This document shows, in pieces, positions 49,929 to 54,747 of a DNA stretch of 64,000 bases. How positions within the stretch are numbered: position 1 is the stretch's first letter; each line of letters starts with the position of its first letter. The position numbers and the translations under genes were made by a program. The notes under the pieces were generated by a model. It was given only the letters and a program-made list of their open reading frames with translations, did no database searches and had not been told where the DNA came from. Source of the stretch: an uncultured Acidobacteriota bacterium (GTDB lineage: Bacteria; Acidobacteriota; Blastocatellia; RBC074); assembly GCA_963794955.1 (NCBI GenBank), contig CAWCGF010000003.1:125985-189984 (forward strand), in the 5' to 3' direction.

Positions 49929-50150
49929 ATGATTAAAAATATGATGGTTAGGATTTTCGCCGGATTAGTGGCGGTTTCATTATTAGGCGTTGTTTCGTTT
50001 GCCCAGACTCAGCATATTTTCTATCGCGGAACCGACGGCAACATTAACCACATTTGGTATGACGGCACTATCCATCGTGACCAATGGACAGTAGCCGCCA
50101 AAGCGCCCCTTACCGCAGGTGATCCGGCAACGAAGGCGATGGGACATTAA
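49929..50150 (+). CDS. Small secreted protein (73 aa), paralog of 54538..54747
   Basis: The signal peptide is MIKNMMVRIFAGLVAVSLLGVVSFAQT. The mature part is QHIFYRGTDGNINHIWYDGTIHRDQWTVAAKAPLTAGDPATKAMGH, about 70% identical to the paralog. Confidence 0.5.
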   Translation: MIKNMMVRIFAGLVAVSLLGVVSFAQTQHIFYRGTDGNINHIWYDGTIHRDQWTVAAKAPLTAGDPATKAMGH

Positions 50151-50300
50151 CAGCAAAAATTCCGTAGCACCGAAAGAAGAAATCGTAAGGCCATTAGAGT
50201 AATTATTAGCTTGGCAGTTGCAATTACTGCTCACAACTTAACCTCACGGGTGCAGGCCGATCCCTACGATCTGCTCCGTTATACCAAAGGAAACCTCACA

Positions 50301-50816
50301 ATGCTTACAGTATCAAAACCATTTATTACACGTGTGCTGGACCTCTTACTGCTGGCAGGGATCGTATCCGCAAGTTTCATCAGCAGTGACGCACGAGTCC
50401 GTCCCGCTTCATTGATAGCCAAATCTCCTCTGAGTCTCACCACAGCTCTTCCTTTAGAGGGTGATTGTGAGTGGAAAGAATCCGAACTGGGATGGACGGG
50501 GCAATGGGTTCGCTATGACTCAGACTGGAAGCAGGGGGTACACTTATATACTGCTAGTTGGACGAAAGATGGTCAGCAAGATGTTTATGCTGTCCTTACC
50601 ATTACCATCACCGGGAGTTCAGTCAAAATCCATAGAGAAAATAAAGACCTTACCACCTGTGCTTATACCGGTACGTTAAGTGCTGACCGTAAGTCCGTCT
50701 CTGGCAACTATTCTTGTAGTAATAATGCAGGTCAGTCCTACAGTTGGTCTGCGACCATCAAGGGTGGCTGCTTTGAACTACCTCAAAAGCCAAAAAGACA
50801 ACCAAAAAGTGAATGA
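50301..50816 (+). CDS. Secreted protein consisting essentially of the four-cysteine domain (copy B)
   Basis: A signal/TM (MLTVSKPFITRVLDLLLLAGIVSASF) is followed by CEWKESELGWTGQWVRYDSDW...SWTKDGQQDVYAVLTITITGSSVKIHRENKDLTTCAYTGTLSADRKSVSGNYSCSNNAGQSYSWSATIKGGC. Confidence 0.55.
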   Translation: MLTVSKPFITRVLDLLLLAGIVSASFISSDARVRPASLIAKSPLSLTTALPLEGDCEWKESELGWTGQWVRYDSDWKQGVHLYTASWTKDGQQDVYAVLTITITGSSVKIHRENKDLTTCAYTGTLSADRKSVSGNYSCSNNAGQSYSWSATIKGGCFELPQKPKRQPKSE

Positions 50817-50908
50817 CAGTGATCCTGCCAGGATTACCTCCGATTTACTCTGAAAATAATAATTTCGCCCATAACCTGCATCACATTAGTGCAGAAATAG
50901 ATAATAGG

Positions 50909-51826
50909 ATGTTTAGAAATATGTGGAGACTCCAAGTTGTTCTCGTTGTCGCGCTGTTCATTCCATTGTTAGTACAGGCACAAACTCTTACGAATTTTCC
51001 TTCCGAATTTCGACAGATGTGCTTTACAAAAGATGACAATATTTACCTACAGGACTTGAAGGCGGGAACCACAAAGTTGATTCGCAAAGGCTCCGATCCG
51101 CATCTTTCTCCTTCGGGGAAATTCATTGCCTATACCGTTTATGCCAAGGGAAAGAATCCAAACGATCCTGACAGAACTATTCAGGTACTTAACCTGGAAA
51201 CTAATCAGACACAAGGGTTCAAATCTCTCAATAAAGTTATTAGTTACGGGGCTGTTTGGTCGCCTAATGAAACACATCTGGCACTCAACATTTTTACCAA
51301 TAATGCCTGGCAGGTCGGAATTTTAAATCCTGTGAGCGGCGAATTGCGAATTCTTACTCAGGGATTGCCGGGGATAAACGATGCGTTTCTGAGTTCGTGG
51401 TTGCCGGATAGCAAATCAATCGTGTGCGCTGACCTCTCTAATGTTTACGAAATTGATTTAGCCGGAAAGATACTACAAAAAATATCTTTAGATAAGCTGC
51501 CAAATAATATTGGCGGTATCTCAAGTGCTACCAAGTATTCACTCTCCAATAATAAAAGGTATCTGTTGTTTGATGTTGAAGACCCGGATATTCCTAGTTC
51601 TATTCACATTTACGACTTAGCTCAGAAAACATTTTCGCGTATCACCCCTCGAAAAGTAGTTGGTGGCGAACCGCAATGGCTACCAGGAGAAAAAGAAATT
51701 GTATTTACCAGCTTTAGGCAGGTAAACAAGCGTAAGGCTACTTTTGATGTTTACAAAATAATGATAGGTGCAACTGTACCTACCCTTCTCGCGCGGGATG
51801 CTTCTAGTATTTCATTTTCGCGGTAA
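50909..51826 (+). CDS. Secreted TolB-like (PD40 repeat) beta-propeller protein, paralog of 54848..55765
   Basis: A signal peptide is followed by PD40-like repeats (HLSPSGKFIAY, VWSPNETHLA). It is about 65% identical to its paralog. Confidence 0.7.
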   Translation: MFRNMWRLQVVLVVALFIPLLVQAQTLTNFPSEFRQMCFTKDDNIYLQDLKAGTTKLIRKGSDPHLSPSGKFIAYTVYAKGKNPNDPDRTIQVLNLETNQTQGFKSLNKVISYGAVWSPNETHLALNIFTNNAWQVGILNPVSGELRILTQGLPGINDAFLSSWLPDSKSIVCADLSNVYEIDLAGKILQKISLDKLPNNIGGISSATKYSLSNNKRYLLFDVEDPDIPSSIHIYDLAQKTFSRITPRKVVGGEPQWLPGEKEIVFTSFRQVNKRKATFDVYKIMIGATVPTLLARDASSISFSR

Positions 51827-52724: not shown

Positions 52725-52866
52725 ATAAAGGCGTTGATTAAGGCCTGATGTCAGGCCACTTTCTGTAAACAAAAAGTAAATAAATGATTTGGTTGCAATA
52801 CCTTCATTATTTTGCAAATGTGGCCTGACATTATGTTACACCCCTTAGCTTATCAATAGGAGAAAC

Positions 52867-54444
52867 TTGGCTATGTTACGATCCAGGAAACAAAGAAACT
52901 ACATCTCTTTTACTACGCTAATCCTTCCCTTACAGATAGCCTTGCTAACACTGTTTCTGTGTACTGTCTTCACCTCCACGGCTTTAGCTGCAACCATCAC
53001 TCCGCAATACGATACAAAACCAGAGTATCAGAAATATTGGACTCCTAATTTTAAGGCGCAGGTGAGCGATGCCTGCAATTTTTTGGGAGGGTACATTGGC
53101 AATAATATTACAGTTACGCTCACTGTAACTATTGGTTCTGCCTCTGAATTGAAGGCTGCTTTTGCAGATGGTGCGCCTAACTCGGCCTTGGAAAGCACCA
53201 CGACAAAGTACATTGCTTCAACTGGCACAATCAGATTTAACCCGTCTTCTTTTGACGACACTGCCAAAGATTGGAAAGGAAATAATATCTCGCTGATGGT
53301 GCATGAGATATTTCATTGTCTGGGATTCAACTCTGGCATTACGGCCTTTGCGGCGAACATTGACCAAAATAATGCATTCAAGGGAGCTAATACCCAAAGA
53401 GTAAATGGGAATGCCCCTTACCCTCTCAATGGTGCGAGTGATAAGTCTCATTTCAAAAGAGAATTAACTCCACCGGTTGCCAATCAGGTAGTTACGGACA
53501 AAGTCGGAGTCGCCCCAAGAATGATGGCGGGTGGCGGCGGTACCCTTTCCATTGTTGACTTAGCAGTATTGGCAGACATTGGCTATGACATCCCTGTAGT
53601 CAATTCAGCAACGACCGCCACCTGTTTAGGCTTTAAGCTCAGCCCGTTGAACTCAGGAAAATATAATCAACTTCAATACAAGGCCACTACTTATGTTGCC
53701 GGAGGTTGTGGAAATGACGAAATCAATGGGAACAACTCAGCGGAGAGCATAATTTTACGCGGAGAAGGCGGCAACGACACGCTAATTTCCGGCAATAACC
53801 CTACCGTCATGATCGGCGATGATTTAGACGAATTAGCCAACGGAAAAGATGGAAGTGATCTTTATAAGATTGAGACTAATAAGGCGCACGTGATCGTGGG
53901 GTTAGGAGCAAAAGATAAAATTCAGATTTCATCCACATTAGTAGATCAAAACCAGGTAAATTCACTTACCGTCGCCGCACCCGATCAAACTCTCCCAACT
54001 TATTACTTTGGGGGCAAATCATTTTTCCCGCTAAAAGTAACTATCGGAAGTCTGACTCTATATTCCTATCACGTGCAGGAACCTCTCGATACAGTGAAGC
54101 AAAAGTTAATCAATAGTATTTCACTGTCGGGCGGCAGTTCCTCTTGCCGCTGGGATGAAGCAGAGTACAACTGGAAAGGTACCTGGATTCGACGTGGAAA
54201 CACCAATACTTACGATGCGACCTGGACGTTAGCTGGACAAAACAATGTCACCGCCGTACTCACCATTACTCGTAATGGAAACGCCATCAGTATCAATAGA
54301 ACAGGGAGTTCAGATGGGACGAATTGTCAATATACAGGAACCGTTGCAGCGGACGGCAAGACGATAACCGGGACATTTACTTGCACAAACAACAGCGGAT
54401 ACGTGGCCAATTGGATGGCAACCATTAACGCTGGTTGCAATTGA
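52867..54444 (+). CDS. Secreted zinc metalloprotease (HEXXH) with RTX-like GGxGxD repeats and the four-cysteine C-terminal domain (copy C)
   Basis: A signal peptide is followed by the zincin motif MVHEIFHCLGF. Hemolysin-type Ca-binding-like repeats read GGCGNDEINGNNSAESIILRGEGGNDTLISG. The C-terminus is CRWDEAEYNWKGTWIRRGNTNTYDATWTLAGQNNVTAVLTITRNGNAISINRTGSSDGTNCQYTGTVAADGKTITGTFTCTNNSGYVANWMATINAGCN. Confidence 0.7.
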   Translation: MAMLRSRKQRNYISFTTLILPLQIALLTLFLCTVFTSTALAATITPQYDTKPEYQKYWTPNFKAQVSDACNFLGGYIGNNITVTLTVTIGSASELKAAFADGAPNSALESTTTKYIASTGTIRFNPSSFDDTAKDWKGNNISLMVHEIFHCLGFNSGITAFAANIDQNNAFKGANTQRVNGNAPYPLNGASDKSHFKRELTPPVANQVVTDKVGVAPRMMAGGGGTLSIVDLAVLADIGYDIPVVNSATTATCLGFKLSPLNSGKYNQLQYKATTYVAGGCGNDEINGNNSAESIILRGEGGNDTLISGNNPTVMIGDDLDELANGKDGSDLYKIETNKAHVIVGLGAKDKIQISSTLVDQNQVNSLTVAAPDQTLPTYYFGGKSFFPLKVTIGSLTLYSYHVQEPLDTVKQKLINSISLSGGSSSCRWDEAEYNWKGTWIRRGNTNTYDATWTLAGQNNVTAVLTITRNGNAISINRTGSSDGTNCQYTGTVAADGKTITGTFTCTNNSGYVANWMATINAGCN

Positions 54445-54537
54445 TAATCCACGCAGGCACGAACTAAAAATCCGCGAGTTTAGGACAACTTATTCCGGCC
54501 CGTGTAGAGCACGAACTTTTACAAGTGAGAGATCCAA

Positions 54538-54747
54538 ATGATTAAAGACATGGTTGCAGGATTATTTGCGGTTGTCTGGTTGGGCGTTGTTTCATTTGCC
54601 CAAAAACAGCACATTTTTTATCGCAGAACAGACGGACACCTTAACCATATTTGGACGTCTTCCGACATCAATCATGACCAATGGACGGTGGCGGCCAACG
54701 CGCCGCTGGCTACAGGCGACCCGACACCGATGCTGACGGGAAATTAA
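54538..54747 (+). CDS. Small secreted protein (69 aa), paralog of 49929..50150
   Basis: The sequence is MIKDMVAGLFAVVWLGVVSFAQKQHIFYRRTDGHLNHIWTSSDINHDQWTVAANAPLATGDPTPMLTGN. Confidence 0.5.
   Translation: MIKDMVAGLFAVVWLGVVSFAQKQHIFYRRTDGHLNHIWTSSDINHDQWTVAANAPLATGDPTPMLTGN

Follow-up and report, generated by a model that had tools for sequence, protein, structure and literature searches.

Two secreted single-blade relatives of the seven-bladed PLL-like lectins in an uncultured Acidobacteriota bacterium

The window analysed here, a 64,000-nucleotide (64-kb) stretch of DNA from an uncultured Acidobacteriota bacterium (GenBank assembly GCA_963794955.1, contig CAWCGF010000003.1), contains two short open reading frames (ORFs) on the + strand, at 49929..50150 and 54538..54747, whose products we call peptide A and peptide B. 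Both consist of a predicted signal peptide followed by exactly one blade of the PLL-like lectins, a family of seven-bladed propellers, and comparison of gene sequence and gene order identifies B as the positional ortholog of a gene for a secreted PLL-like lectin with all seven blades (L017:5814-6917), found in a metagenome of a related acidobacterium, a sister lineage. To judge from their substitution pattern, the one-blade versions look selectively maintained. We propose tentatively, giving the idea somewhat less than an even chance, a model in which the one-blade genes arose by reduction and duplication and in which about seven exported peptides would form a strand-exchanged propeller lectin.

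Two one-blade members of the PLL-like family

Peptide A (73 amino acids (aa) plus stop) comprises a predicted signal peptide of 25 aa (49929..50003) and a single PLL-like blade of 48 aa (50004..50147; QTQHIFYRGTDGNINHIWYDGTIHRDQWTVAAKAPLTAGDPATKAMGH), and peptide B (69 aa plus stop) a predicted signal peptide of 21 aa (54538..54600) and a blade of likewise 48 aa (54601..54744; QKQHIFYRRTDGHLNHIWTSSDINHDQWTVAANAPLATGDPTPMLTGN). A preliminary description of the window had already placed two paralogous secreted-peptide ORFs at these positions, although it put their mature parts at about 45 aa, slightly too short. Both ORFs match Pfam DUF346, gene calls for both are present in the public NCBI/ENA assembly, on a 328-kb contig, and a Shine-Dalgarno-like site read from the sequence (AGGAGA, 49918..49923, + strand) lies 5 nucleotides (nt) 5' of the ATG of A. 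Both N-termini begin with MIK and continue through N-terminal K/R residues and a hydrophobic core to '...GVVSFA|Q'; by inspection these are Sec-type signal peptides cut after SFA, and the 'A|Q' ending is common to other exported proteins of the genomic island in which the two genes lie. The two products share 62% protein identity (BLASTP E = 5e-30, far beyond chance) and 73% DNA identity. No further blade, intact or degenerate, was found in any frame of the 64-kb window.

The family to which the blade belongs, labelled DUF346 / PLL-like lectins (PF03984, PF26607, PropLec7A) in our tests, is well defined. Against Pfam PF03984 (DUF346), A scores 30.7 bits and B 23.8 bits at a gathering score of 22, with one matching stretch each, and DUF346 was equated with the PLL-like seven-bladed lectins, class PropLec7A, in the LectomeXplore paper (PMC7778903). 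A profile built from A and B matched the sequences of the Photorhabdus lectins PLL2, PHL and PLL3 in the PDB blade after blade. Six of the seven matches in that search were PLL-family chains (PLL2, PHL, PLL3 and PLL), four of them in the top five; PLL2 alone was significant (E = 0.0035), and 40S ribosomal protein SA came fourth (E = 0.95). These results bear out the earlier proposal that the motif represents one blade of a propeller-type lectin, and they point away from the RSL/AAL fucose lectins that this proposal had named, since profile searches of the mature peptides gave the PLL-like/DUF346 match instead and no Pfam family other than DUF346 appeared at E <= 1. When the blade profile was aligned with RSL in hhalign, the probability was 4% over 16 columns, which is not significant, and we rejected that relationship.

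An exhaustive HMMER search of 1.84 billion representatives returned 782 relatives at E <= 0.001, of which the best 150 were examined. In the best 149 of the 782, seven is the commonest length of a tandem blade run (62 runs), against 32 runs with six blades and 19 with eight. Among the matches listed, the closest relatives share a unit of 48-51 aa, QQHVFYRG.DG.I.HI.WDG...DQWT..AGAP.AAGDPATMVTPN, and mature A and B each correspond to exactly one such unit in the usual phase, starting at 'QxQH(I/V)FYRG' and ending at 'GDPxxMxTGN'. The nearly invariant blade residues (H4, F6, Y7, R8, H16, W28, A34, P35, G39 and P41) are all kept in both. In a PLL-like lectin, a single chain holds all seven tandem blades and closes them into a propeller; A and B hold one blade each, and both are short ORFs of exactly one blade that is homologous to multi-blade propellers. 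In larger relatives the propeller is fused to galactose/glyoxal-oxidase-like or peptidase domains, as would be expected of a binding module. The PLL family binds L-fucose and O-methylated sugars, and the ligand of an assembly of A or B would probably be a carbohydrate as well, of a specificity that cannot be read from sequence.

No other gene that joins a signal peptide to exactly one blade was found among the best 150 of the 782 relatives or in a word-index search, which was not exhaustive, and others may exist unseen. With A as the query, the word-index homolog search returned only A itself, and a contig search for DNA encoding A returned zero records. When 185,579 reference genomes were scanned, first the A/B alignment and then an alignment of the TolB-like protein encoded downstream of B likewise gave zero matches, which indicates that the lineage is absent from that collection. 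The blade-profile search did yield 22 short DUF346 proteins that first looked like further one-blade genes. The candidates that were checked were all rejected: P0173 runs off a contig end, P0174 represents the final blade of a gene with multiple frameshifts, P0170 is a 1.7-blade remnant, and P0115 is the end of the seven-blade gene.

Other reduced or broken forms of the family were seen along the way. A metagenome-assembled genome of Chthoniobacterales (JBAUZZ010000575.1; L013:3863-4189, with L014 and L015) contains a 1.7-blade DUF346 remnant that was called as a 63-aa gene; it stands alone, and its neighbours encode a weak PatG_D-match protein, a methyltransferase and a luciferase-like oxidoreductase. 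L008:4050-4694 encodes a complete lipoprotein, its signal ending in LGASC, with only three blades of the A/B subfamily at 69-77% DNA identity; this genome is thus not alone in having sub-heptameric forms. In P0027, a signal peptide precedes four blades. The multi-blade DUF346 gene at L012:1004-2361 is broken up across four reading frames, either as a pseudogene or through indel errors in the assembly.

The seven-blade ortholog and the direction of change

Related loci were located via the TolB/PD40-like gene downstream of B. At one of them, seen in three independent assemblies (L017 and L018 from JGI, L019 from Logan), the gene order runs from a Y_Y_Y histidine kinase and a GerE response regulator through a protein with the four-cysteine (4-Cys) domain described below and a 525-aa protein of unknown function to a 367-aa gene (L017:5814-6917), followed by a TolB-like gene, a gene for a 242-aa protein and a Tectonin gene. 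The 367-aa product consists of MIKYLTIRISAALLAALWLSVISFAQ followed by seven blades and a C-terminal MLTGN, and its gene is identical in all three assemblies. Its signal peptide (MIK...SFAQ) is homologous to those of A and B, and its C-terminal MLTGN recurs in B, although the stop codon is TAG at L017 and TAA in B. About 35 nt of non-coding DNA 5' of the seven-blade gene aligns with the region 5' of B (54468..54502, + strand; AAATnCGCGAGT...CCGGCCCG). The flanking genes are orthologous too: the TolB-like gene downstream of B is 75% identical to its L017 counterpart at a synonymous divergence (dS) of 0.80, the response regulator 86% identical (dS 0.56), and the 4-Cys protein encoded at 49184..49912 is 79% identical (dS 0.67) to its ortholog at L017:3155-3982 (285 aa). 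Signal peptide, C-terminus, upstream DNA and flanking genes together identify B, at the level of sequence, as the positional ortholog of the seven-blade gene.

The existence of this gene raises the question of which state came first. The seven L017 blades are 47-74% identical to one another in protein, and their pooled blade-to-blade dS of 1.25 exceeds the 0.56-0.80 found between the flanking genes of the two organisms, so the seven blades are probably older than the split of the two lineages. At synonymous sites, A and B are both closest to L017 blade 6 (proportion of synonymous differences, pS, 0.43 and 0.42, respectively), with blade 7 next, and their DNA identity to blade 6 is 76% for A and 72% for B. 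Blades 6 and 7 also lack, as A and B do, a three-residue loop insertion that is present in blades 2 to 5. A neighbour-joining tree grouped A, B, blade 6 and blade 7 with a bootstrap of 51%, A with blade 7 at 46% and B with blade 6 at 28%; whole-blade amino-acid identity assigned neither A nor B to a particular L017 blade. There is thus a weak synonymous-site and nucleotide signal that A and B nest among the C-terminal blades of the seven-blade gene. On the basis of this nesting, reduction from seven blades to one is favoured, with moderate confidence, over amplification of an ancestral single blade in the other lineage.

Provided that A and B go back to a single gene that was already reduced, their divergence records how the one-blade form has been treated since. 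Between A and B, the ratio of nonsynonymous to synonymous divergence (dN/dS) is 0.26 at a dS of 0.88 (Fisher's test on substitution counts, p = 5e-5). When neutral substitution was simulated at half the A-B dS, an ORF stayed open in 4-5% of cases and both together in about 0.2%. Given that shared descent, these two results suggest selection on the one-blade form, and a single reduction followed by duplication is a more parsimonious history than two independent reductions. As the preliminary description had argued, the two ORFs are not noise; they are real coding sequence.

Proposed self-assembly of single blades and competing explanations

Ligand sites in the PLL family lie between adjacent blades and use tryptophan stacking (PMC6943638, PMC5584973), so that a one-blade chain could recreate them only as part of a ring. 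In the model proposed here, recombination between repeats would have removed six blades in frame, and the resulting one-blade gene would then have been duplicated to give A and B. After export and signal-peptide cleavage, about seven peptides would assemble in a ring made of A, of B or of a mixture. Each chain would supply three strands (B, C and D) of one blade, its C-terminal strand A' would complete the blade next to it, and the ligand pockets, which are found between adjacent blades in PLL, PHL and RSL, would here fall at subunit interfaces. In its fullest form, the model holds that A and B are functional, that seven 48-aa chains strand-exchange into a PLL-like propeller lectin after export, and that the genes have reverted to an 'ancestral peptide' state and been kept by selection; we regard this full combination as possible but doubtful.

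The fold was modelled in AlphaFold2 (AF2) as an artificial tandem of seven copies of mature A. When 28 natural relatives were aligned and supplied as input, the prediction reached a mean predicted local distance difference test score (pLDDT) of 95.9 and a predicted template-modelling score (pTM) of 0.92. In each unit, residues 2-9, 14-19 and 23-27 are predicted as strands, followed by a short helix and a last strand, A' (42-46), which would pair as a hairpin with strand B, the first of the following unit. A PDB fold search with this model placed PLL-family entries in all of the top 22 positions, with a template-modelling (TM) score of 0.80 to PHL and PLL2 at a root-mean-square deviation of 2.6 Å. 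AAL, AFL and AOL ranked below all 22 (TM ~0.55, E ~1e-9 versus 6e-20), and the AAL-type fold suggested in the preliminary description was rejected on this comparison. The tandem model shows compatibility with a propeller, not assembly. As context and precedents for the model, we count two Tectonin lectin genes in the same island, the complete three-blade lipoprotein of this family, and an engineered and reconstructed 47-aa tachylectin motif that forms a functional homopentamer (PMC4735018).

Several observations weigh against this model. Without an alignment, AF2 gave the same tandem a pLDDT of 42, and the good model is thus largely driven by seven-blade relatives. The tachylectin motif assembled only in the intact-blade frame and not in the Velcro frame (PMC4735018), whereas the frame of A and B is the permuted B-C-D-A', and single WD40 blades were unfolded monomers in vitro (PMC6805158). 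When the sugar contacts of PHL, as described in PMC5584973 (the threonine of RGTD, both tryptophans of WHIW and the tryptophan of strand D), are mapped onto A and B, T10, W18 and W28 are present, but the fucose-stacking tryptophan, the first W of 'WHIW', is asparagine (N15) in both. If A and B arose by two independent recent reductions, their low dN/dS would mostly record selection on seven-blade ancestors, and the tree does weakly pair A with blade 7 and B with blade 6. Comparing B with blades 6 and 7 gives a dN/dS of about 0.4-0.5, above the 0.13-0.25 of the flanking genes, so some relaxation of selection on B is likely. Finally, the locus appears to be decaying in relatives. No blade gene was found at L009, L016 or L020, three related loci that keep the TolB-like and 4-Cys genes, and the 4-Cys gene of L009 (L009:5480-5942, WBZS01000011.1) has an in-frame TAG at a conserved tryptophan codon (CV*QETEIGWEG...) and is probably a pseudogene.

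In the main rival explanation, repeat-mediated deletions removed six blades, and A and B are decaying remnants whose ORFs are still open and whose peptides are unfolded and functionless. The existence of a seven-blade ortholog among whose blades A and B nest fits such a history, as do the relaxed dN/dS of B against its closest blades, the failure of isolated WD40 blades to fold, and the complete loss of the gene at related loci, one of them with a pseudogene next door; the other short public DUF346 ORFs that were checked are likewise fragments or frameshifted pieces. Decay sits poorly, however, with two intact copies of the same architecture that both retain signal peptides, start codons and all nearly invariant residues, with an A-B dN/dS of 0.26 (p = 5e-5), and with a chance of only ~0.002 that both ORFs would have stayed open under neutral drift, and it would be less parsimonious if it had to reach exactly one blade twice independently. 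On balance, we consider it unlikely that the peptides are inert remnants, without dismissing the idea. A blade could instead serve as an accessory or adaptor subunit that binds the 4-Cys protein, the TolB-like propeller or the Tectonin by β-strand addition. Such a role would suit the 4-Cys genes that adjoin the blade gene in both copies, the TolB-like gene that adjoins both B and the seven-blade ortholog, and the signal peptides carried by all candidate partner proteins. We nevertheless judge it improbable, given that the TolB-like and 4-Cys genes occur together without a blade gene in L009, L016 and L020, that none of the best 149 of the 782 relatives has a fused 4-Cys domain, and that the seven-blade ortholog, as a complete propeller, has no need of a partner.

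Two further explanations carry very little weight. Tandem repeats can collapse in metagenome assemblies, and a short-read assembler might have merged several near-identical blades into one; the orthologous blades, however, are 64-76% identical in DNA, too divergent to collapse, two copies that differ at 27% of DNA positions both show one blade, and in an independent Logan contig the genes that flank B are likewise 403 nt apart, so that we regard an assembly artefact as very improbable. The preliminary description also allowed for a bacteriocin-like peptide or a precursor of a ribosomally synthesised and post-translationally modified peptide (RiPP). A and B are indeed small and predicted to be exported, and the unrelated Chthoniobacterales contig described above does have a DUF346 remnant beside a weak PatG_D-match protein. 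Yet no modifying enzyme, immunity gene or dedicated exporter was found within ~10 kb (Pfam and NCBIfam scans of all neighbours, 39.7-64 kb), the N-terminus has by inspection the layout of an ordinary Sec signal (n-region, h-region, SFA|Q) rather than of a leader and is shared with the seven-blade lectin gene, and the entire mature part is a conserved structural repeat. A toxin or RiPP role hence seems scarcely credible.

Genomic surroundings and comparison with known propellers

The genes next to A and B all lie on the + strand. As the preliminary description had noted, each one-blade ORF follows a 4-Cys-domain gene: the gene 49184..49912, for a secreted protein of 242 aa whose C-terminus carries the 4-Cys domain, stops 16 nt short of A, and the gene 52867..54444, for a secreted 525-aa protein with the same C-terminal domain, stops 93 nt short of B. 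Downstream of A lie a second 4-Cys-domain protein of 201 aa, whose start is uncertain (50211..50816), a TolB/PD40-like β-propeller (paralog 1; 50813..51826, likely start 50909; NCBIfam TolB propeller 7e-12, below cut-off) and a Tectonin-domain lectin-like protein of 248 aa with a signal peptide (51978..52724; Pfam PF19193, 2.5e-34). Directly downstream of B is TolB/PD40-like paralog 2 (54848..55765), whose orthologs mark the related loci; the two paralogs are 64% identical at a dS of 1.9. The 4-Cys domain itself spans about 100 aa at the C-terminus of three secreted proteins of the window (49607..49909, about 50466..50771 and 54145..54441), with four invariant cysteines in the pattern C.W.E.E..W.G.W ... 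C.Y.G ... G.Y.C ... W.ATI..C. It recurs in related loci (L017:3119-3979, L020:1-339 and L020:368-883) and has no match in Pfam, NCBIfam or PDB sequences. The 525-aa protein combines it with an HExxH motif (HEIFH; weak NF038122 metalloprotease match) and RTX-like GG.G.D repeats.

Beyond these genes, the island holds a second Tectonin-domain gene (57881..58627; Pfam 4.8e-29), and L017 also has one (L017:8738-9472). Tectonins bind O-methylated glycans. PLL-family lectins bind glycans of this type, which are a conserved target in the innate immunity of fungi and animals (PMC6943638). Some 50 nt immediately 3' of the two stop codons (50151..50205 and 54748..54800) are ~70% identical (TTCCG.AG.ACCGAA...GTAAGGC.ATTAG), as conserved as the coding part despite differing downstream genes. 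A scan for sigma-70 promoters and terminators gave fewer promoter-like sites than in shuffled sequence and nothing useful beside A or B, and Rfam gave zero matches within the window. Between the response regulator and the GFO/ADH genes (48001..58000), the G+C content of the island is 0.42-0.47, compared with 0.50-0.55 in the flanks. In a close relative whose regulator falls in the 90%-identity cluster of the window regulator (L001:9894-11401), an ISL3 transposase follows the regulator and the island is not there. Elsewhere in the window, a 435-aa AAA_21 (AbiEii-type) ATPase and an unannotated 194-aa ORF (40863..42751, - strand) lie between purK (39736..40866) and purE (42760..43257) in what looks like an insertion into the pur operon.

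The locus offers a matched natural pair: one lineage has a secreted lectin of seven blades, and the other has two one-blade versions that have diverged from each other. If the peptides do form a functional ring, it would be the first case in nature of a propeller assembled from one-blade chains, derived by reduction of a seven-blade gene that still exists. The Lupas and Tawfik laboratories reportedly favour, as the leading model, propellers amplified from free-standing single blades. To our knowledge, no natural single blade has been demonstrated to fold and function, and the tachylectin single motif is said to have needed reconstruction and selection. The pair thus provides a natural test of whether single blades self-assemble, what ring size they adopt and whether sugar sites at subunit interfaces work, and peptides of 48 aa are easily synthesised. 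If they prove inert, the locus would instead record the decay of a repeat protein and the time over which a remnant keeps a gene-like appearance.

Of the known systems, the Photorhabdus PLL-like lectins share most with A and B: the blade motif (E/H)(V/I)F(A/Y)RG.D..(L/I).HIW...W, a blade of ~47-48 aa with four strands and, for PHL and PLL2, the superposition with the predicted tandem of A at a TM score of 0.80. They differ in having seven blades per chain where A and B have one behind a Sec signal peptide, in a protein identity of only ~17%, and in the fucose-stacking tryptophan that is asparagine in A and B, which belong to a distinct subfamily (QQHVFYRG.DG.I.HI.WDG...DQWT..AGAP.AAGDPATMV). 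The L017 protein of 367 aa belongs to that same subfamily and differs in its number of blades, seven against one. In RSL and BambL, two-blade chains trimerise into a six-bladed fucose lectin, and the AAL-type proteins are six-bladed fungal lectins. For A and B we propose the mechanism of RSL and BambL, in which short chains oligomerise to complete a propeller and the sugar sites fall where blades meet; the resemblance to RSL, BambL and AAL is otherwise limited to a loose motif (VY...G.I.E..WDG), and six blades, or two per chain in RSL, stand against seven and one.

The closest parallel in size is the engineered tachylectin-2 ancestor AncB1B (PDB 5C2N), a peptide of ~47 aa that equals one blade and assembles into a functional ring with lectin activity. 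In nature, ORFs with a single motif and a relationship to multi-blade propellers were noted for Crocosphaera and Frankia (Smock et al. 2016, PMC4735018). All of these cases concern different propeller families (tachylectin, FG-GAP and WD40). The Crocosphaera and Frankia ORFs were read as precursors, are uncharacterised and lack a matched multi-blade ortholog at the same locus, whereas for A and B the direction of change appears to be reduction. Both the PLL-like family and the idea of single-motif propeller ORFs (PMC4735018) are thus already known. What is new is their combination: a secreted one-blade PLL-like form occurs as two diverged copies, and a sister lineage has an intact gene with seven blades as the positional ortholog.

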